A stretch of DNA of 31,258 nucleotides from a virus (lineage: Duplodnaviria > Heunggongvirae > Uroviricota > Caudoviricetes). Positions 18,835 to 29,778 of this stretch are shown piece by piece; the first letter of the stretch is position 1, and each line of letters starts with the position of its first letter. A program made the position numbers and the translations under genes. Where the stretch lies: the IMG/VR virus record IMGVR_UViG_2718217862_000002; one strand, given 5' to 3'. The notes under the pieces were generated by a model that did not search any database, was not told the DNA's origin, and saw only the letters and a list, made by a program, of their open reading frames with translations.

Positions 18835-19007
18835 TGTCAGGAGTCCTGAATAGTGATTAGAGGAGTCACATGTCGGCATCAGTTTCCCGACGATGCGCAT
18901 CCTCCGCCATCAGTCCCGGATGGCTTATCACTGACACAACAGCACCTTAGCGAATCGCAGGGCGCGACTCAGTAGCCTTGCCGTGTATTCATCACGGCGA
19001 GGTATTC

Positions 19008-20780
19008 ATGACCATCACCACAGACACCACTCTTTTACACGACCCGCGTCGTCAGGCGGCGCTGCTGTACTGGCAGGGGTTTTCCGTGCCGCAGATTGCC
19101 GCCATGTTGCAGATGAAACGCCCGACGGTGCAGAGCTGGAAACAGCGCGACGGCTGGGACAGCGTTGCTCCCATCAGCCGTGTCGAAATGAGTCTGGAAG
19201 CGCGGCTGACCCAGCTCATCATCAAACCGCAGAAAACCGGCGGTGACTTCAAGGAAATTGATCTGCTGGGACGCCAGATTGAACGACTGGCACGGGTAAA
19301 CCGCTACAACCAGACCGGCAACGAGGCAGACCTTAATCCGAACATCGCTAACCGCAACAAAGGCGGGCGACGCAAACCGAAAAAGAATTTTTTCAGCGAC
19401 GAGGCTATCGAAAAGCTGGAGCAGATTTTCTTTGAGCAGTCTTTCGAATATCAGTTGCACTGGTATCGCGCCGGGCTTGAGCACCGCATCCGCGATATCC
19501 TGAAATCCCGCCAGATTGGCGCGACGTTTTATTTTTCCCGCGAGGCGCTGCTGCGCGCCCTGAAAACCGGTCATAACCAGATTTTTCTGTCGGCCAGTAA
19601 AACGCAGGCGTATGTGTTCCGCGAATACATCATCGCCTTTGCCCGTCTGGTTGACGTTGACCTGACCGGTGACCCGATTGTCCTGGGCAATAACGGCGCA
19701 AAACTGATTTTTCTCGGCACCAACTCCAACACCGCACAGAGCCATAACGGCGACCTGTACGTCGACGAGATTTTCTGGATCCCGAATTTTCAGGTACTGC
19801 GTAAGGTGGCATCAGGTATGGCCTCACAGAGTCACCTGCGTTCGACCTATTTCTCCACCCCGTCCACGCTGGCGCACGACGCCTACCCGTTCTGGTCAGG
19901 TGAACTGTTCAACCGGGGACGCGCCAGCGCCGCCGAACGCGTGGAAATCGACGTCAGTCATAACGCCCTTGCCGGTGGGCTTCTCTGTGCGGACGGCCAG
20001 TGGCGGCAGATTGTCACCATTGAGGACGCCCTGAAAGGTGGCTGCACGCTGTTCGACATTGAGCAGCTCAAACGTGAAAACAGCGCCGACGATTTTAAAA
20101 ACCTGTTCATGTGTGAATTTGTTGACGACAAGGCGCCGGTGTTCCCGTTCGAGGAGCTGCAACGCTGCATGGTCGACACGCTGGAAGAATGGGAAGACTA
20201 TGCGCCGTTTGCCGCGAATCCGTTCGGCTCCCGCCCGGTATGGATTGGTTACGACCCGTCACACCGTGGCGACAGCGCCGGATGCGTGGTGCTGGCACCG
20301 CCGGTGGTGGCCGGTGGCAAATTCAGAATACTTGAGCGTCACCAGTGGAAAGGCATGGACTTTGCCACTCAGGCGGAATCCATCCGCAAACTCACCGAAA
20401 AATACAACGTCGAATACATCGGTATTGATGCCACCGGCCTCGGTGTCGGCGTGTTCCAGCTCGTGCGCTCGTTCTATCCCGCCGCGCGCGATATCCGCTA
20501 CACGCCGGAAATGAAAACCGCAATGGTGCTCAAGGCAAAAGACGTTATCCGTCGTGGCTGTCTGGAATATGACGTCAGCGCCACCGACATCACCAGCTCG
20601 TTTATGGCTATCCGCAAGACCATGACCAGCAGCGGACGCAGCGCCACCTATGAGGCCAGCCGCAGCGAGGAAGCCAGCCACGCCGACCTCGCCTGGGCGA
20701 CCATGCACGCCCTGTTAAATGAGCCACTCACCGCCGGTATCAGCACTCCGCTGACATCCACCATTCTGGAGTTTTACTGA
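19008..20780 (+). CDS. P: Terminase large (ATPase) subunit gpP, 590 aa
   Basis: Start at MTITTDTTLLHDPRRQAALLYWQGFSVPQIA (ATG 19008, GAGG six nt upstream); size matches P2 gpP. Confidence 0.9.
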   Translation: MTITTDTTLLHDPRRQAALLYWQGFSVPQIAAMLQMKRPTVQSWKQRDGWDSVAPISRVEMSLEARLTQLIIKPQKTGGDFKEIDLLGRQIERLARVNRYNQTGNEADLNPNIANRNKGGRRKPKKNFFSDEAIEKLEQIFFEQSFEYQLHWYRAGLEHRIRDILKSRQIGATFYFSREALLRALKTGHNQIFLSASKTQAYVFREYIIAFARLVDVDLTGDPIVLGNNGAKLIFLGTNSNTAQSHNGDLYVDEIFWIPNFQVLRKVASGMASQSHLRSTYFSTPSTLAHDAYPFWSGELFNRGRASAAERVEIDVSHNALAGGLLCADGQWRQIVTIEDALKGGCTLFDIEQLKRENSADDFKNLFMCEFVDDKAPVFPFEELQRCMVDTLEEWEDYAPFAANPFGSRPVWIGYDPSHRGDSAGCVVLAPPVVAGGKFRILERHQWKGMDFATQAESIRKLTEKYNVEYIGIDATGLGVGVFQLVRSFYPAARDIRYTPEMKTAMVLKAKDVIRRGCLEYDVSATDITSSFMAIRKTMTSSGRSATYEASRSEEASHADLAWATMHALLNEPLTAGISTPLTSTILEFY

Positions 20781-21814
20781 TGAGCAAGAAAAAAGGGAAA
20801 ACACCGCGACCAGCGGCAAAAAAAATGACCGCCAGCGCTCCGAAAATGGAGGCATTCACCTTTGGCGAGCCGGTGCCGGTACTCGACCGCCGTGACATTC
20901 TGGATTATGTCGAGTGCATCAGTAACGGCAGATGGTATGAGCCACCGGTCAGCTTTACCGGTCTGGCAAAAAGCCTGCGTGCTGCCGTGCATCACAGCTC
21001 CCCGATTTACGTCAAACGCAATATTCTGGCCTCGACATTTATCCCGCATCCGTGGCTTTCCCAGCAGGATTTCAGCCGCTTTGTGCTGGATTTTCTGGTG
21101 TTCGGTAATGCGTTTCTGGAAAAGCGTTACAGCACTACCGGTAAGGTCATCAGACTGGAAACCTCACCGGCAAAATATACCCGCCGTGGCGTGGAAGAGG
21201 ATGTTTACTGGTGGGTGCCGTCCTTCAACGAGCCGACAGCCTTCGCGCCCGGCTCCGTGTTTCACCTGCTGGAGCCGGATATTAATCAGGAGCTGTACGG
21301 CCTGCCGGAATATCTCAGCGCCCTTAACTCTGCCTGGCTGAATGAGTCGGCCACGTTGTTCCGCCGCAAGTATTACGAAAATGGCGCACATGCCGGATAC
21401 ATCATGTACGTCACCGATGCCGTGCAGGATCGCAACGATATCGAAATGCTTCGCGAAAACATGGTCAAGTCGAAAGGCCGCAACAACTTTAAAAACCTGT
21501 TTCTCTATGCCCCACAGGGGAAAGCCGACGGCATTAAAATTATCCCCCTCAGTGAAGTGGCGACGAAGGACGATTTTTTTAATATCAAAAAAGCCAGCGC
21601 CGCTGACCTGCTGGACGCGCACCGCATCCCCTTTCAGTTGATGGGTGGCAAGCCGGAGAACGTCGGGTCGCTGGGTGATATTGAGAAAGTGGCAAAGGTC
21701 TTTGTCCGCAATGAGCTTATCCCGTTACAGGACAGGATCCGCGAGATAAACGGCTGGCTCGGTCAGGAGGTCATCCGCTTTAAAAACTACTCACTGGACA
21801 CTGACAACGACTGA
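20780..21814 (+). CDS. Q: Portal protein gpQ, 344 aa
   Basis: Size identical to P2 gpQ; start overlaps the P stop; last gene before cos. Confidence 0.9.
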   Translation: MSKKKGKTPRPAAKKMTASAPKMEAFTFGEPVPVLDRRDILDYVECISNGRWYEPPVSFTGLAKSLRAAVHHSSPIYVKRNILASTFIPHPWLSQQDFSRFVLDFLVFGNAFLEKRYSTTGKVIRLETSPAKYTRRGVEEDVYWWVPSFNEPTAFAPGSVFHLLEPDINQELYGLPEYLSALNSAWLNESATLFRRKYYENGAHAGYIMYVTDAVQDRNDIEMLRENMVKSKGRNNFKNLFLYAPQGKADGIKIIPLSEVATKDDFFNIKKASAADLLDAHRIPFQLMGGKPENVGSLGDIEKVAKVFVRNELIPLQDRIREINGWLGQEVIRFKNYSLDTDND

Positions 21815-22003: not shown

Positions 22004-22229
22004 CGCCCGCTTCATGGGGCGGTTTTAATGCAGTTGCATGAGTACGTTGGAACCGCACTGGTGCTGACGATACCCAATCAAACCTTGCTGTATAATTACT
22101 TGCGAATTCACGCACATCAACGCGAATCTTACATCATGAATAATTCATTTATGGCTACAGAATGAGTATATTGCATGTTATGAAATAACTTTGTGCTCCT
22201 TCTCGTGGACATGTTCAACGGAGATCCAG

Positions 22230-23351
22230 ATGATTGCTGATTCAGAAATACTTTATGTTCCGCTAGATGATTTGGAACTTGACACAGAAAACCCAAGACT
22301 TCCTGAAGGCGTGTCTCGTGACCAATTGGGAATGATTAACTACATAGCAACCTCAACATCTATCGAAGACCTAATGAGTGCTATTGCGGAAAATGGTTTT
22401 TTCCCTGGAGAACCATTGATTGTCATTCCTGATAGTGGAGCGCCGGGGAAGTACATTGTAGTTGAAGGAAACCGTCGCCTATCCGCGGTCAAATTATTAC
22501 GCGATCCGACACTATGTGAAAATCCAAGTGCTCGACTACGAGAAATTGCATCAAATGCAAAACATACGGTCGATCGTGTTCCTGTCATTGAGCGCCAAAC
22601 AAGAGAAGAGATTCTTCCGTACCTTGGTTTCAGACATATTACTGGTGTCAAACAATGGGAACCCTTATCAAAAGCTCGATATATTAAACAGCTTTTTGAT
22701 TATACCAATGCAAATCTGGATCCAATGCTACGCTACTATGAGGTTGCCAGAGCTATTGGCAGTCGTAGGGATCATATCAAGCGTAACCTAGACGCTTTAG
22801 CGGTGTATGAAATCATTAAAAAAAATGATTTTTATGGTATTGAAAAGCTAGATGAAGAAACGATTAAATTTTCAGTATTATCAACAGCACTTGCTGATGA
22901 GCGGTTAGGCCAGTTTGTCGGAGTTTCAATCGAAGACGATGGAGACACAATACCAAGTCATCCTATCATCAATTCTAAGAGTTTAAAGAACAAAGAAATA
23001 AAAGAACTAACTGAATGGTTATATAAAAAAGGCGAGGATAAAAAAACTCGTGTAGGAGAATCACGTAATTTAAGAGAACTAGCTGCTGTTGTAAGTAGCC
23101 CTAAGGCATTGGAGCAATTCCGAATGGGGGCTCCACTCGCAGTTGCCTATCAATTGACATCTGATATTACTAAGGACTTTCTCCAGTTACTTTATCAAGT
23201 TGAAGCAGCTTTGATAGATGCAGCAGGCATGGTTGCCACGGTAGAGTATGATAGACAGGCCCATGAAGTAGCACGAAGAATCAATAAACATATTAAGCTT
23301 ATAGGTTCTGAAATAGCAGAGAAAAATAGCAGAGGTGATGATGACTTTTGA
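22230..23351 (+). CDS. ParB/Srx-like (ParB N-terminal nuclease/NTPase-fold) domain protein, about 373 aa; cargo gene 1
   Basis: N-terminal region ILYVPLDDLELDTENPRL ... LMSAIAENGFFPGEPLIVIP ... KYIVVEGNRRLSAVKLL follows the ParB-box pattern (NPR motif, then the G-x-R-R arginine motif). ATG at 22230 preceded by GGAG; the ORF-track start at 22191 is a TTG. AT-rich codon usage unlike the phage backbone. Confidence 0.7.
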   Translation: MIADSEILYVPLDDLELDTENPRLPEGVSRDQLGMINYIATSTSIEDLMSAIAENGFFPGEPLIVIPDSGAPGKYIVVEGNRRLSAVKLLRDPTLCENPSARLREIASNAKHTVDRVPVIERQTREEILPYLGFRHITGVKQWEPLSKARYIKQLFDYTNANLDPMLRYYEVARAIGSRRDHIKRNLDALAVYEIIKKNDFYGIEKLDEETIKFSVLSTALADERLGQFVGVSIEDDGDTIPSHPIINSKSLKNKEIKELTEWLYKKGEDKKTRVGESRNLRELAAVVSSPKALEQFRMGAPLAVAYQLTSDITKDFLQLLYQVEAALIDAAGMVATVEYDRQAHEVARRINKHIKLIGSEIAEKNSRGDDDF

Positions 23352-24330
23352 AGTAGGAGTTATGCATCCCAACTCTCCTCATTTGTTTGCAGATTTAGCC
23401 GAGTTACTCACGGTAATTAATTATACCGGACGTAACTCACTACATAAAAATGATTTAGATTCAGTAAGAAAATTCGGCATAACAAGCGTTGAAGAAATTG
23501 ATGAAGAATGTAATTCTGAAGAAGAAATTAATGGAGACGCTGAGAGAAATGATCGTTTTGAAGAGCAACTCGAAGATGTTTGGACACAACTCGAATATAG
23601 AGAAAGTGCTCTTGGCAAAATATATCCATTTATAATTTCAGGTGATGAGATAATTATTAAAGAAAATCTAAACCAACAACAACGAATATATGTTTTTCTT
23701 CTTTGCTGCTCTAGACTTAGATCCTTTAAGTCGATTAAAGGAGCAGCACAACGTTGGGCAAAGAGCTTTGCCAGAGTATGTAAAGTAGCAATGATTTCTC
23801 TCTTACCTGCACATGGCACCGTAAGAATTTTTGATGCTAACTCCGATGATAGGCAAAATTATTATGGAACAAATCTTCGGACAGCTCTACAAACTTTAGG
23901 AAAAGATCTTGGAGTTTGTAGTTTAAACACAAGGGAAATAAATAGAGCTCCCACATCTGGTGATGCCGGGTTTGACCTAATTGCTACAGTGGAATTTCCT
24001 GATGGTCAAACTAGCAACTATGGAATTCTTGGTCAATGTGGTGCACAAGAAACAGGGTGGCCAAGCAAAACATTAGAGGCTAACGTGTTAAAACTGACCA
24101 CCTATTTCCAAATTGCGTTCCAGCATCCATCAACAATGTTCACGCCTGTTTTCTATCGGGAAGCAAATGGCGAATGGGTAAGCACACACGCAACCGCTGG
24201 AGTATTATTATTAGATAGGTTGAGAATCATATATCTACTTGATAAGGCAAACCAATGGGAAGCGATAACTACCTCTGATTGGTTTCGCGAATTTGAGGAA
24301 GAGCTTTATACATTAAATCCAGAGCCTTAA
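23335..24330 (+). CDS. Hypothetical protein, 331 aa, no domain recognised; overlaps gene 1 by 17 nt; cargo gene 2
   Basis: Long ORF in the AT-rich island, start codons (ATGATGATG) overlapping the 3' end of gene 1; acidic stretch EEIDEECNSEEEINGDAERNDRFEEQLED near the N-terminus. Confidence 0.6.
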   Translation: MMMTFEVGVMHPNSPHLFADLAELLTVINYTGRNSLHKNDLDSVRKFGITSVEEIDEECNSEEEINGDAERNDRFEEQLEDVWTQLEYRESALGKIYPFIISGDEIIIKENLNQQQRIYVFLLCCSRLRSFKSIKGAAQRWAKSFARVCKVAMISLLPAHGTVRIFDANSDDRQNYYGTNLRTALQTLGKDLGVCSLNTREINRAPTSGDAGFDLIATVEFPDGQTSNYGILGQCGAQETGWPSKTLEANVLKLTTYFQIAFQHPSTMFTPVFYREANGEWVSTHATAGVLLLDRLRIIYLLDKANQWEAITTSDWFREFEEELYTLNPEP

Positions 24331-24337
24331 TAGCTTA

Positions 24338-25282
24338 TCAATCCCATAATTCTATTGGCAATGCCTTCGTTACAGCTTCAAAAAGCGGCGGAGGCACTGC
24401 ATTACCAACCACCGTGTATTTCATGCCAAGACTTGCAGCATTTGTTTCTGGAAACACTAGATCCTCAAACCCTTGTAATAGTGCAGCCTCTCGAAAACTG
24501 AATCTGCGAGCTCTCCGATCCTCAACAAATCTCCATTCATCAGTTCTTACTTTCTCCATCGGAGGACTGACAGGATGCAACGGCATATGCCTTGCATTAG
24601 CAACTATTGTCTTTGAAATTTGATCCCAATCCTGGCGACGATTGCGAGACATATAATACCAATGGAATCCCATATCATAAAATTCACCTTCTGGCCATTC
24701 AGGTAAATGCCCTATAGCATCTTTAATAGTAACATAGTTGACGCCAGTTGCTGGCCCATGAGTTGGCTGAGGGAACTCGTACTTAACTTTGAAATCATTA
24801 CGGATTCCTACGATAAATATTCTTTTTCTTTCCTGCGCTACTCCATATTCAGCCGCATTTAAAACTTTTGCGGAAACAGTATAACCTGCTTCAGTAAAAA
24901 CCCTGATCTGGTCAGATAACAAATGCTCAAAATTTTTTCTAACCATACCAGACACGTTTTCTACTATAAAAGCTTTAGGCTTTATATTGTTTAAAGCTCT
25001 AGCAAACTCTAAATAAAGAGTATTAATTTTTCGATCGGCTTTACGCGCACCACCCTGGCTGAATCCCTGACATGGATAACAACCTACCAGCAAATCAGAT
25101 TTAGGAAAAGTAGTTACATCAGCAATATTGCCTAATATGTAATCAGTTTCTGGATGATTGGCAATATAAACATCGCGCGCATACGGCAAGATATCGTTGG
25201 CCATAAGCACATCAAAGCCGGCTCTCAAAACCCCCGCATCGGAACCACCGCATCCAGAAAAAAGTGAAACTACTGTTGGCAT
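24338..25282 (-). CDS. DNA (cytosine-5)-methyltransferase, 314 aa; cargo gene 3
   Basis: Canonical m5C MTase motifs in order: FSGCGG (motif I, AdoMet binding), PCQGFS (motif IV, catalytic Cys), ENV (motif VI), QERKR (motif VIII). Convergent with gene 2, stops 8 bp apart. Confidence 0.9.
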   Translation of the reverse strand: MPTVVSLFSGCGGSDAGVLRAGFDVLMANDILPYARDVYIANHPETDYILGNIADVTTFPKSDLLVGCYPCQGFSQGGARKADRKINTLYLEFARALNNIKPKAFIVENVSGMVRKNFEHLLSDQIRVFTEAGYTVSAKVLNAAEYGVAQERKRIFIVGIRNDFKVKYEFPQPTHGPATGVNYVTIKDAIGHLPEWPEGEFYDMGFHWYYMSRNRRQDWDQISKTIVANARHMPLHPVSPPMEKVRTDEWRFVEDRRARRFSFREAALLQGFEDLVFPETNAASLGMKYTVVGNAVPPPLFEAVTKALPIELWD

Positions 25283-25401
25283 TATCCCCTCCTAAAACCG
25301 ACCGCGTATTATAGCGAAAGCCTCCGTATATAGAAGCAGGTTTTGAACAAGATTATGTTCTCACTTTTTAACAACTGTGGCCATAAAAAATTAGCTCAAT
25401 A

Positions 25402-25430
25402 TGAAAAACAGATTAATTCATTGTTTTTCA
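25402..25430. repeat. Perfect 9-bp inverted repeat TGAAAAACA-N11-TGTTTTTCA in the AT-rich spacer between the MTase start and the A stop
   Basis: Read directly from sequence at 25402-25410 and 25422-25430. Confidence 0.5.
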
Positions 25431-25483
25431 TAGAAAAATTCCACAAACACTATAACATTCCCACAACACTGCAGTAGTAGTCA

Positions 25484-27760
25484 TTATTGTTTAATTGAAA
25501 AAACCGACCACTCATTAGCGACCGGATACGTGAATTTTTTCCCGTCATAATTTACGGTTGCCCCACGCGCCAGCGCCTCAAGCTCCCATCGCTGCGGCCT
25601 GATACCGTTCTGAGCAAGGTCAACGCGGATACGGGTAATTTGCATTCGTTCCGACCGGGTCAGTCTGGCCGATGGTGCCATTTCATGCGGTTTTAACGGG
25701 CTTCCGTTTCTTTGCTGGCGATTTGGTGTTCTCAGGCCATGTTTTAATGCACCTCTGAGCGCCCTCACGACCTCCGGGTCATTCCATTCGATGACACCGT
25801 CATCAACCAGATTAAGCACTGCTGCGGCGTGCTCAGAAGGTGTGGGAGCTGGTAACGAAGTATCACCACCGGTGAGCTTTCCACAGTTATTGACAGGACT
25901 CCGAGGCGCGGCGATGCCGCTTTTTAAAGTCAAAGGCTCAACGACCGGAACTTTCGGCACAATGCGCCAGTCCGTCGTTCTGGTGATATGAATATGACGC
26001 GCGCCGAGATGCGGCGCGTAAATGCCGACCACTCTCTCGACTTCTTCCTCGTATTCGTTAACGTCATCCGACGGGCTACGGGCGACCCTGACAGTCTGAC
26101 AATCGCGCGGGACATTTGCCCCGCCCTGCGCGCTGATATACAACGCAAAATCGCCACTGTCTGCGGCGGCGCGTGCAGCCTCCACGCGTTCGTCAAATTC
26201 ATCAGCAATGCTGACGCCGCGAGGCAATTTACGTAGCTCACGGTAAGCTCCCATTGTCGGCAGGCCAACCGTTTTAAATTGCGGGATGCGCCACGTTGAC
26301 GCCCATGCGGTAACAGCCGCCGCAGTATCTTTCAGCGGTCTGCCGGTATCGTTATCGAGCTGACCATCCAGTGCATAGCCGTCGATATTTTTTGAAATGT
26401 ATTTCGCGATATATCCCGCAGCACCGCCCCGGTTAAGGTGTTTTGCCTGAAAACGGTTTCGCGCGGCTCCTCTTTCGTCGCCATCCTCTTTGAGCGCATA
26501 GCGGCGCATGATTTCGATAATCTGGTTACGCTGGCGTGGATTACAAAAAAGCATCATATGCCAGTGCGGCGTTCCGTCGTGGTGTGGCTCGACGACTCGC
26601 AAACCGTAGACCTGTAAATCATTATCCTTGAATGCCGTGCGCATCAGGCTCCAGATACGGCAGAGATAACGCTGCGCATCCTTTGGATTAAATGCCTCAT
26701 CATTCCAGCCGTGATTAAGCTGGACGGTTTTATTTTCGCCTTTTCCAACCTGACGTGTCGGGTGATACTTTGACGGCGCGGTCAGCGTGATAAACATCCC
26801 CACATCACCCTCTGAGGCGGCGTAACGCTCAATACCGGCAATGGTGTTCATCAGCTCCATCCGGCGAATTTCAGGATTAGAAATACTGCCCATCACCTTA
26901 CTGATAAGGTCGATGCGCTCGCCGGTTTCCCTGTTTTCAAGATCACACGATTTAAGAAATTCCAGATTTGCCTGGCGGCGCGCACGCACATCACGAATGG
27001 CATGTTTACTGGCATAAGGTGAACGGTCTTTATTGACCTCCCCGACAGCTATCAGTAACGCCTCATGCCAGCGCATACGCTGGCCTTTAAGCTGATGAGT
27101 CCACCACTCATCGTTAAACAGACGGGCAATGGCAGAATATGCCTGCCTCGTGGTCATCTGCCCTTTACGGTATTTGTTCCAGTAGAGAGGGGAAATATTG
27201 AAAGCACGTGCAGCGCCAGCAACATGACCATAGAGGTGAGCCTGCGCCTCATCCGTAAACAGCGATTCTTTTTCGCCATGTGCATCCACCCAGGCATCGC
27301 TGAGTTCCTCATACATCATGAAAAGCTGCGATGAGATACGGGCAGCAAACTTTTTCAGCTCCTTGTCATTCATTCCCGGCAGGCGCGCATAGTGGTCACG
27401 CTCTGCCAGAAACAGTAACGACGCGTCGGTGTTCATTTCATGGCGCTGATTCACACGCTCAATGCGCGGCCATAAACGACGCTGAAAAGTGGATGTGAGG
27501 AAATAAAACCCGTGCACCGGGCTTTTATTGCGCCGGATGTAGTCATAGCGTGAAGTAAACAGCGAGCGCAAAAAGTAAGGCAGGCGGTTAATCGTGGATA
27601 AAACACCTTGCACCTGACGCATCTCGTCACGTGTAAGAGGTCTTTCGCGCCCGACAGCCTCGCGTGGCGCGTTCCATGCATAAGCACCGGTAAACGCCTT
27701 ACCGGTGCCTGCGGCAAATGCTGACGGAGGGACAAAACGCCCGGAGGCTTTAACGGCCAT
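25484..27760 (-). CDS. A: Replication initiation protein gpA (rolling-circle endonuclease), about 758 aa
   Basis: Size and position match P2 gpA; first ATG at 27760 (MAVKASGRF...); the ORF-track start at 27802 is a TTG that would overlap orf83 by about 50 nt. Confidence 0.85.
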   Translation of the reverse strand: MAVKASGRFVPPSAFAAGTGKAFTGAYAWNAPREAVGRERPLTRDEMRQVQGVLSTINRLPYFLRSLFTSRYDYIRRNKSPVHGFYFLTSTFQRRLWPRIERVNQRHEMNTDASLLFLAERDHYARLPGMNDKELKKFAARISSQLFMMYEELSDAWVDAHGEKESLFTDEAQAHLYGHVAGAARAFNISPLYWNKYRKGQMTTRQAYSAIARLFNDEWWTHQLKGQRMRWHEALLIAVGEVNKDRSPYASKHAIRDVRARRQANLEFLKSCDLENRETGERIDLISKVMGSISNPEIRRMELMNTIAGIERYAASEGDVGMFITLTAPSKYHPTRQVGKGENKTVQLNHGWNDEAFNPKDAQRYLCRIWSLMRTAFKDNDLQVYGLRVVEPHHDGTPHWHMMLFCNPRQRNQIIEIMRRYALKEDGDERGAARNRFQAKHLNRGGAAGYIAKYISKNIDGYALDGQLDNDTGRPLKDTAAAVTAWASTWRIPQFKTVGLPTMGAYRELRKLPRGVSIADEFDERVEAARAAADSGDFALYISAQGGANVPRDCQTVRVARSPSDDVNEYEEEVERVVGIYAPHLGARHIHITRTTDWRIVPKVPVVEPLTLKSGIAAPRSPVNNCGKLTGGDTSLPAPTPSEHAAAVLNLVDDGVIEWNDPEVVRALRGALKHGLRTPNRQQRNGSPLKPHEMAPSARLTRSERMQITRIRVDLAQNGIRPQRWELEALARGATVNYDGKKFTYPVANEWSVFSIKQ

Positions 27761-28025
27761 ATGAGCCAAAAGCCTCAGAACAACGCTTGCTGAGTTGCTC
27801 AACCTGCGCGTTTAAATCAGCAAAAGACTTTGCGCTTCCGGTCAGAATATCGTGATGCATCAGGCCGGAAACGAGCTGGCTTAATTTCGGGTAATAACCA
27901 ACCACCGCCAGCCATTCCTGACCGGCGTTTTTACCGCTTTCCGCTCTCTTTTTCTCGTGGAGAATAAACTGAAAGCTGTCACTGGTAACGACATAACGTT
28001 CGCCAATTTCAATACGAATACTCAT
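27750..28025 (-). CDS. Hypothetical protein (P2 orf83 position), 91 aa
   Basis: Synteny within the early operon between orf82 and A; start overlaps the orf82 stop. Confidence 0.55.
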   Translation of the reverse strand: MSIRIEIGERYVVTSDSFQFILHEKKRAESGKNAGQEWLAVVGYYPKLSQLVSGLMHHDILTGSAKSFADLNAQVEQLSKRCSEAFGSYGR

Positions 28026-28551: not shown

Positions 28552-28772
28552 AGCACCTCCCCGCGAGACAATCCGATATTGTGAAATTTTTCCGACTCCT
28601 GACTGAGCAGCTCGACTATCTCCACGCGGGATAACTCCGCCTTTGTGATATGGCGAATCATGGCGTCAAGATGAGAAGAAAAGCGTGTCGCTGCGTCGGC
28701 CTGTGCTTCGGCTCTGGCCTGTTGCAGCAGTAATGCGTATTTACCGCACTTGTTTTCAGAAACTGTATGCAT
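28548..28772 (-). CDS. Hypothetical protein (P2 orf80 position), 74 aa
   Basis: Synteny in the early operon. Confidence 0.5.
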
Positions 28773-28835
28773 GACTTTCTCCAGGCAAAAAGAAGCCCCG
28801 CACGATTAAGTGCGTTAAAAACTCTGGTTAATTAT

Positions 28836-29336
28836 TTAATGCAGATATTGCTCTGGTTTTACCGACGTCAGAATTGTCGGTGCATACTCAAACAGGCTGA
28901 ATAATTCACGTAATGCACGGAATAAAGCATCACGCCAGTAACATGATTCTTCATTAATTCGCCAGTATGGCTGGTTGAATTCTTTTTCAGTCAATCCGGC
29001 ATGCATAAATAAAGTACGACGCTGACTGACTGTTAAAAAACTAATATATGCATACTCACTTGCGCCAACCTGACGGCGTTTTGAGAATGCCCCACGCAAT
29101 TCATCAATTGCACAAACCAGCCGTTCACGTTCGACGTCGTTCATTTCTTCAAAACGCATCGTTGCGTGACGCTGTTTTAACTGCGCATGGAAGCAAACCG
29201 TTAGCCGTTCGCGTTCCATCATCTGATTATAATAATCACATGTATCCTGCCAGCGAGGGACGGCAAGATGCTTGCCAATTATCCGGCGCATAGCTGCTGG
29301 CTGTTTTTCAACGAGATTGAGCGTCATCACTGTCAT
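28836..29336 (-). CDS. B: Replication protein gpB (helicase loader-like), 166 aa
   Basis: Size identical to P2 gpB; position between cox/orf78 and orf80. Confidence 0.85.
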   Translation of the reverse strand: MTVMTLNLVEKQPAAMRRIIGKHLAVPRWQDTCDYYNQMMERERLTVCFHAQLKQRHATMRFEEMNDVERERLVCAIDELRGAFSKRRQVGASEYAYISFLTVSQRRTLFMHAGLTEKEFNQPYWRINEESCYWRDALFRALRELFSLFEYAPTILTSVKPEQYLH

Positions 29337-29503
29337 TTCCAGACCCTCCGGCTTTTCAGAAAGGTCAGAGCCTTTTTTAACGGACTCTGTTTTTTGGTGC
29401 GGATAATGATTCCCTTGCGTCCCTTCCCGTGGGTGATGGTGAAGTCAATCGCCCTGTGGCTTTCGTTACGCAGTAACTGAGCAATACAACGCGGCTCATT
29501 CAT
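29333..29503 (-). CDS. Small hypothetical protein (P2 orf78 position); start uncertain
   Basis: Short ORF between cox and B; internal ATG (MNEPRC...) chosen to avoid overlap with cox; weak evidence. Confidence 0.35.
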   Translation of the reverse strand: MNEPRCIAQLLRNESHRAIDFTITHGKGRKGIIIRTKKQSPLKKALTFLKSRRVWK

Positions 29504-29505
29504 AA

Positions 29506-29778
29506 TCACAACCCCATCCACAAAAGCCATGCATCACGCTGTTCAACCGGTCGGTTATAAAACGCCTCACGTACAGCGCGATTAAACTCAGGAATGAAAA
29601 CCCATTTTTCACCGGCACGAGCCTTCGGTTTGCAAGGATCACGCAATTCAATAATTGGTAATTTATTTGCCTTCACCATTTCACTGACAGCTGTCTTTGG
29701 CTTCCCTAATAAATCAGCAAATTTATCCACATGAACCGCATCAAGCGGATACTGAATCACATAATTTTCAGCGTCCAT
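29506..29778 (-). CDS. cox: Cox (excisionase / early transcription regulator), about 90 aa
   Basis: C-terminal ...PVEQRDAWLLWMGL resembles the P2 Cox C-terminus; first gene of the early operon, divergent from C. Confidence 0.8.
   Translation of the reverse strand: MDAENYVIQYPLDAVHVDKFADLLGKPKTAVSEMVKANKLPIIELRDPCKPKARAGEKWVFIPEFNRAVREAFYNRPVEQRDAWLLWMGL

Follow-up and report, generated by a model that had tools for sequence, protein, structure and literature searches.

The C5-cytosine DNA methyltransferase encoded at positions 24338..25282 (minus strand, stop codon included; 314 aa) of the 31,258-nucleotide phage genome analyzed here (hereinafter, the window) is intact and probably is the modification component of a three-gene, restriction-modification (R-M)-like anti-phage module, in which the two genes that converge on it, gene 1 and gene 2, would attack unmarked DNA. 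That an intact methylase should stand in an R-M layout is unsurprising in itself; the finding nevertheless points to a widespread, uncharacterized defense module.

An intact C5 methylase and its predicted target

The methylase open reading frame (ORF) starts with ATG and ends with TGA at 24340-24338 on the minus strand. The encoded protein contains motif I (FSGCGG, residues 8-13), motif IV with the catalytic cysteine (PCQGFS, 70-75), motif VI (ENV, 108-110), motif VIII (QERKR, 150-154), motif IX (RRFSFREAALLQGF, 259-272), and motif X (GNAVPP, 293-298) in the canonical order, with a HaeIII-type target recognition domain (TRD) between motifs VIII and IX, where the variable region that separates QERKR from RRFSFREAALLQGF spans about 105 residues. 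The Pfam profile PF00145 covers residues 3-308 (profile positions 2-322 of 324; E=5.5e-65, 220 bits against a cut-off of 22), and the NCBIfam profile TIGR00675 is matched with E=1.4e-56 (192.5 bits against a cut-off of 100.65). Across an alignment of 72 sequences, that is, the window sequence and 71 unique homologues, the core motif residues F8, G10, G12-G13, P70-S75, E108, and N109 are invariant, along with Q150, R152, R154, and N294-P299. The ORF, the motifs and both family profiles agree with the first-pass annotation, made from the sequence alone, which had described an intact C5 methyltransferase with FSGCGG, PCQGFS, ENV, and QERKR in order. As a C5-family enzyme the protein is unremarkable, with a match far above chance, and it is predicted to catalyze methyl transfer to C5 of cytosine.

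Among solved structures, the closest one is M.HaeIII (1dct; E=1.4e-48, residues 4-308 aligned with 3-320), with 37.5% identity overall and 31.8% identity within the TRD, which is aligned over its whole length. Residues S224, R225, R227, and R243 of M.HaeIII correspond to S212, R213, R215, and R231 of the phage methylase, all of which are invariant in the 72 sequences. In M.HaeIII, S224, R225, and R227 contact the bases of GGCC, and the R243Q substitution lowered GGCC methylation (PMC3526282). The first-pass annotation had considered the TRD impossible to assign; given that this domain aligns with that of M.HaeIII and that the base-contacting residues are retained, we tentatively predict GGCC as the target, with the inner C as the presumable site of methylation. 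The automatic annotation of a phage record names a 76%-identical homologue of the methylase 'Modification methylase BspRI', and BspRI recognizes GGCC. The GGCC count in the window is 0.68 of the expectation, which is not diagnostic because the phage has its own methylase.

The methylase appears to be transcribed from a promoter of its own. The 150 nucleotides upstream of the gene are conserved among diverged loci; in an alignment of seven loci, with methylases about 75-89% identical, the Shine-Dalgarno sequence GGAGGGG located 5' of the ATG (25286..25292, minus strand) is invariant, and so is a perfect TATAAT hexamer (25308..25313, minus strand) within the invariant leader TTCGCTATAATACGCGGTC. 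This hexamer is a candidate -10 element of the methylase promoter, which a consensus promoter scan did not pick because the -35 element is poor. About 65 nt 5' of TATAAT, the diverged loci share an invariant TGGCCA block; the GGCC within it (25379..25382) might, speculatively, be a site of self-methylation or regulation.

A three-gene module in the P2 defense hotspot

The window is a P2-like (Peduovirus) genome that encodes the large terminase at 18978..20780, the portal protein Q at 20780..21814 (plus strand), and the replication protein gpA at 25484..27802 (minus strand). The methylase belongs to a low-GC cargo island (22030..25483; 37-43% GC compared with 51-58% in the flanks) between gpA and cos/portal Q, the position of the P2 tin/old defense hotspot (hotspot #1). 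This locus is a hotspot for anti-phage systems (Rousset et al. PMC9122126; Vassallo et al. PMC9519451), and several systems described in the latter study sit in P2-like prophages. The same position is occupied in Yersinia phage HQ103, phage Wphi, and prophages of E. coli and Klebsiella. Over the 3.5-kb island, the window shares 100% identity with the right end of HQ103, which has the same three-gene layout and whose linear genome end (cos) maps to about position 22004 of the window. The whole island was found in 48 of the 5426 complete E. coli genomes; at identity of at least 95%, the methylase of the window allele and its genes 1-2 were likewise each found in 48 genomes.

Gene 1 (22230..23351, plus strand) encodes a 373-aa protein with an N-terminal ParB/Srx domain including an EGNRRL box, an HTH-like middle domain, and a helical C-terminus. 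Its start is assigned to the ATG at 22230 from homologues and the HQ103 annotation, the mechanical ORF start being at 22191. The PADLOC profile PD-Lambda-5_A matches this protein with E=6.6e-29 (residues 22-295 on profile positions 7-277 of 440), such that the ParB and middle domains are covered and the C-terminal third of the profile is unmatched. The candidate family PDC-M38A of PADLOC also matches gene 1; a literature search returned no mention of PDC-M38. Because conservation 5' of gene 1 is poor, we draw no regulatory conclusion from that region.

Gene 2 (23341..24330, plus strand) overlaps gene 1 by 11 nt and encodes a 329-aa protein with an N-terminal winged-helix-like region and a putative C-terminal restriction-endonuclease-like, that is, PD-(D/E)xK-like, domain; the start is assigned to the ATG at 23341 on the same grounds as that of gene 1, with the mechanical ORF start at 23335. 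The invariant residues are D214, Q234, G236, Q238, K245, and E248 (in the numbering of the 331-aa ORF), which are part of the conserved stretch SGDAGFD(214)LIA ... GQ(234)CGAQE ... WPxK(245)xLE(248)A. The canonical (D/E)xK signature is missing and the signal of the restriction-endonuclease-like fold is weak. Profile searches with gene 2 against Pfam, NCBIfam, PADLOC (also at E<=10), and PDB sequences produced no match, nor did a Pfam scan of 30 gene 2 homologues, each searched singly. The family is large and unannotated, with 1177 clusters at 50% identity, 705 of these at E<=1e-10. The 715-aa PDC-M38A profile hinted at a fusion of genes 1 and 2, which is absent among the 150 best relatives of gene 2; these are stand-alone proteins of about 310-370 aa, or shorter fragments. 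We infer that gene 2 encodes a winged-helix protein with a divergent PD-(D/E)xK-like domain, a putative nuclease effector.

The TAA stop of gene 2 (24328-24330) and the convergent stop of the methylase (24338-24340) are separated by a spacer of 7 nt (24331..24337), in which a scan detected no terminator-like hairpin; the tail-to-tail spacing of 8 bp reported in the first-pass annotation is the same distance under a count that runs from the last base of one stop to the first base of the other. Elsewhere among the E. coli variants, gene 2 and the methylase either abut at their 3' ends or share 4 nt there.

In phages, the linkage of the methylase with genes 1-2 is obligate. Among the best 80 IMG/VR loci with a methylase at least 69% identical, genes 2 and 1 are directly beside the methylase in all 77 that have enough flanking sequence to be evaluated, in the convergent orientation in 76 and co-directionally in one (L107). 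A bacterial sample, searched from gene 2 and limited to one genome per species, comprised 18 evaluable loci. The methylase (60-77% identical) adjoins genes 1-2 in 12 of these, from hosts that include Methylophilaceae, Halomonas, Acinetobacter, Acidovorax, Undibacterium, and an Acidobacteriota MAG, and wherever the position is visible, gene 1 is directly upstream of gene 2. Loci L021 and L022 have the operon order methylase-gene 1-gene 2, and in L017 and L018, the module adjoins phage tail genes rather than gpA. The layout of the window was found in all five E. coli loci inspected. The convergent layout is also kept in Klebsiella, at four places with an 89%-identical methylase and close genes 1 and 2 (93% and 86% identity), and at five places with a 75%-identical methylase and distant genes 1 and 2 (32% and 27%). 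Two decay products fit the view of the three genes as a unit: phage L-413C has lost both gene 2 and the methylase, retaining only a truncated gene 1, and strain GF54 carries IS1 inside gene 1, whereas its methylase and gene 2 are undamaged.

The main reservation about an R-M reading comes from six loci, all from Methylococcales, that contain genes 1-2, with the conserved residues of gene 2 all intact, and no adjacent C5 methylase. One of these adjoins a type I HsdS and an AAA ATPase; in another, an IS607-like element takes the methylase position; and two are located between housekeeping genes. Possibly, in these genomes, the mark comes from elsewhere, or the effectors are latent until triggered, or else the simple R-M logic is incomplete.

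In a comparison of pairwise identities across 74 non-redundant modules, the identities of gene 1 and gene 2 are strongly correlated (Spearman rho 0.875), whereas there is almost no correlation of the methylase with gene 2 (rho of 0.22) or gene 1 (0.16). Of the 431 methylase pairs with at least 85% identity, 194 come with gene 2 proteins less than 40% identical; in the pair L071 and L074, the methylases are 98.7% identical, the gene 2 proteins 26.9%, and the gene 1 proteins 32.9%. When the window serves as the reference, the methylase has a median identity of 75%, compared with 36% in gene 1 and 28% in gene 2. Thus, genes 1 and 2 track each other as a co-evolving pair, and their products probably form a complex, whereas the methylase is a conserved cassette that is swapped independently at the convergent junction. 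Given that near-identical methylases are combined with very different genes 1-2, this pattern suggests that the methylase and the effectors are coupled through the DNA mark and not through protein contact; very different effector alleles would then work with one and the same mark.

Comparison with known defense systems

The known system that the module most resembles is PD-lambda-5 of ECOR7, which consists of a ParB/HEPN protein A and a methyltransferase B (Vassallo et al. 2022, PMC9519451); in both cases, a ParB-fold first protein is paired with a DNA methyltransferase. PD-lambda-5 has been validated experimentally, which required a host strain lacking the mrr region (PMC9519451). The module described here nevertheless departs from PD-lambda-5 in two defining features, the class of the methylase and the number of genes. 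PD-lambda-5 encodes a D12-class N6-adenine methylase (MethyltransfD12 in HHpred), whereas the one encoded in the window is a C5-cytosine enzyme of PF00145; and PD-lambda-5 has two genes, whereas here there is a third conserved one, the nuclease-like gene 2. Furthermore, protein A has a HEPN/DUF4145 C-terminus, the part for which gene 1 yields no match.

The resemblance to classical, convergent Type II systems that target GGCC (HaeIII/BspRI/NgoPII-type) includes a single-subunit C5 methylase with a HaeIII-like TRD, the tail-to-tail arrangement with putative restriction genes, and the swapping of methylase and effector genes as separate cassettes. As in Type II R-M, the methylase sits beside the putative restriction genes and is inherited together with them. 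The differences are that the putative restriction half consists of two proteins, one with the ParB/Srx fold and the other without the canonical (D/E)xK, and that genes 1-2 can exist without the methylase beside them: the Type II rule that restriction genes never occur without their methylase would be broken by the six Methylococcales loci. To our knowledge, the ParB/Srx fold is not found in Type II enzymes.

Combination of a ParB/Srx-fold domain with a nuclease module in modification-sensing defense is typified by the GmrSD/SspE/BrxU-type enzymes (DUF262 ParB-like NTPase plus a nuclease domain). This likeness is a lead; however, each of these enzymes is one polypeptide that depends on modification or senses PT and has no cognate methylase, whereas in the present module the proteins are split and presumably are blocked by modification. 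No match to DUF262 or DUF1524 was found in the module. Matches to DUF262/ParBc have been reported by HHpred for PD-T4-2A (PMC9519451).

The best PADLOC profile for the methylase is PDLC00027, DruM2 of Druantia type II (E=1.1e-113). We considered and rejected membership in that system: only the methylase profile matches, the DruE helicase, DruF, and DruG are absent, and the neighbors are gpA and genes 2 and 1 in a 31-kb P2-like genome. The similarity to DruM reflects a shared methylase clade only.

Phage Wphi carries, in its TO region (AY135739), the genes mth, orf96, and orf98, which match the trio of the window in both architecture and position. The Wphi methylase is 76% identical to that of the window and gp98 is 34% identical to gene 1, so a different allele of genes 1-2 is involved; the record names Mth, gp96, and gp98 without a function. 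A search of the accessible literature found no experimental, functional or descriptive paper on the gene trio, and the Tn-seq paper that it returned deals with other R-M systems.

Proposed mechanism and alternative explanations

If, as we favor, the methylase is the modification component of the module, a conserved promoter of its own would drive its transcription towards the effector operon, and the enzyme would mark the DNA of the host and the prophage, with GGCC as the predicted site. Gene 1, the ParB/Srx-fold protein, would probably act as a DNA-binding switch or clamp that depends on a nucleotide, and gene 2, the winged-helix and PD-(D/E)xK-like protein, would probably be the nuclease. 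Incoming DNA without the mark would be attacked by the complex of the two proteins, the putative restriction activity of the module, and methylation would block these effectors, the only link between methylase and effectors being the DNA mark.

This reading has to be weighed against three others. Genes 1-2 could be held latent by the methylase, or by the state of methylation or the supply of SAM that it reports, until phage interference, for example, by DNA mimics or a SAM lyase, triggers the gene 1-2 nuclease, with the infected cell dying or arresting, instead of the simple cutting of unmethylated DNA. PD-lambda-5, whose A profile matches gene 1, has been described as a compacted RM+Abi system (Vassallo et al., PMC9519451), and the occurrence of genes 1-2 without a C5 methylase, in one case beside a type I HsdS, would suit an effector that is able to join different modification modules. 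Nonetheless, we regard such guarding as unlikely: the pairing of near-identical methylases with gene 1-2 alleles that are only 25-35% identical argues against specific protein contact, and gene 1 lacks the C-terminal part of PD-Lambda-5_A (the match ends at 277 of 440), which the HHpred table of the PD-lambda-5 study assigns to the HEPN/DUF4145 region (PMC9519451). Alternatively, the chemistry of the methylase and the nuclease could have as its main purpose the killing of cells from which the prophage has been lost (post-segregational killing). The module is carried by a mobile element, and HQ103 is reported to persist in a non-integrated carrier state (PMC10321612). The tested occupants of the hotspot (old, tin, and the PD systems), for their part, are anti-phage. 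R-M pairs are known to act as addiction modules. An addiction role and an anti-phage role can coexist, so that this alternative, which we find improbable, concerns the selective role of the module and not its mechanism.

Phage-borne C5 methylases are often orphans, and the first-pass annotation had listed an orphan phage methylase used for self-protection among its alternatives. On this account, the enzyme would guard the phage or prophage DNA from host GGCC-type restriction enzymes or tune gene expression, with genes 1-2 as unrelated cargo that shares the hotspot; dcm-type genes figure in a 2026 survey of P2-like viruses as auxiliary, immune-evasion genes, and the PADLOC profiles of orphan methylases match the protein too, more weakly (E=4.8e-40). 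The genomic record contradicts this explanation, which we consider highly improbable: the methylase clade occurs without genes 1-2 in none of the 77 evaluable viral loci and the 5 inspected E. coli loci, it adjoins them in the 12 of 18 bacterial loci, the linkage outlasts changes of gene order (L021, L022, and L107) and of genomic site (L017 and L018), and the methylase and gene 2 were lost together in L-413C. The other possibility raised in that annotation, that the methylase is tied to genes 1-2, holds up, the three genes being kept together even when their order has changed.

A broader proposition, which is conceivable and which we put forward with considerable doubt, is that the trio represents an undescribed R-M class, in which a ParB/Srx nucleotide-switch protein and a new nuclease family sense missing GGm5CC, the methylase is a freely exchangeable cassette, and pressure from phages drives rapid diversification of the two effectors.

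If the proposed function of the module is correct, it would account for a trio that has been known since the first Wphi sequence and usually is annotated as 'methylase + hypothetical + ParB-like', and a common methylase of P2 prophages would be the self-marking half of a defense system and not an immune-evasion orphan. PD-lambda-5, a validated system whose mechanism is unexplained, would join a broader ParB-fold, modification-coupled family. Lysogen DNA should then resist HaeIII, and GGm5CC methylation would bear on cloning and on McrBC-type restriction between prophage-carrying strains. The methylase family is represented in 189 of the 5426 complete E. coli genomes, and the 75%-identical Klebsiella methylase protein has entries in 987 blocks of the assembly collection, so that an undescribed R-M class of this kind, if confirmed, would be common.

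Gene starts and upstream elements of the two-gene pair

Genes 1 and 2, which encode a ParB/Srx-fold protein and a putative nuclease, respectively, and are convergent with the C5-cytosine methyltransferase gene (24338-25282, minus strand), are assigned starts at TTG 22191 and GTG 23335 by mechanical ORF calling. Judging from the homologues and from the annotation of Yersinia phage HQ103, whose island is identical to the one analyzed here, these are probably not the true starts; the supported ones are ATG 22230 for gene 1 (373 aa) and ATG 23341 for gene 2 (329 aa). With these starts, the two genes overlap by 11 nt, which suggests translational coupling. In the otherwise divergent stretch that precedes gene 1 and adjoins cos, alignment of the homologous loci reveals a single conserved feature, namely, ATGCA/ACGCA-like repeats spaced by about 10 nt (about 22100-22170 in the window). 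In the public HQ103 records (MZ420230.2 and NC_070908.1), genes 1 and 2 are labelled “hypothetical protein”, and the methyltransferase gene (28684-29625, 100% identical) has no CDS annotation.

The region upstream of the methyltransferase gene

About 150 nt 5′ of the methyltransferase gene (25283-25430) are conserved in six other loci (L024, L029, L113, and L115-L117), although the methyltransferases themselves are only 75-89% identical. Unchanged across the window and these loci are the leader TTCGCTATAATACGCGGTC..GGAGGGG and a TGGCCA site (GGCC at 25379-25382); the -35 region shows no conservation in the same set. Just upstream of the island, within the last codons of gpA, lies a minus-strand terminator-like hairpin of nine pairs followed by a T run (25495-25525), which may mark the end of the early operon ahead of the putative methyltransferase promoter.

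Loci with altered module content

Genes 1 and 2 occur without an adjacent C5 methyltransferase in six loci of Methylococcales (L003, L007, L008, L013, L014, and L016), all of which keep the conserved motif residues of gene 2. In L003, the pair has both a type I HsdS gene and an AAA ATPase gene as neighbours, and in L013 and L016 it is flanked by housekeeping genes (CvfB-like, nadA, guaA); in L008, an IS607-like element (resolvase and TnpB) occupies the methyltransferase position. Methylophilaceae bacterium MTYP (L004:9003-9932) encodes, between gene 2 and the methyltransferase, an additional 310-aa protein with a match to PF13391, the HNH_2 endonuclease domain (E=7e-11).

Two loci contain decay products. 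In the hotspot of Yersinia phage L-413C (L114; AY251033, 29530-30522), the module is reduced to a truncated homologue of gene 1 (62% identity over residues 9-303), directly followed by orf91/gpA, with neither gene 2 nor the methyltransferase present. In E. coli GF54 (L118; NZ_CP172159.1), the gene 1 homologue is disrupted by IS1A, and gene 2 and the methyltransferase are intact.

Depletion of GATC

Under a maximal-order Markov model, GATC is strongly depleted across the entire window (1-31258; 35 occurrences against 129 expected, ratio 0.27). It is the rarest 4-bp palindrome relative to expectation, followed by GGCC (ratio 0.68).
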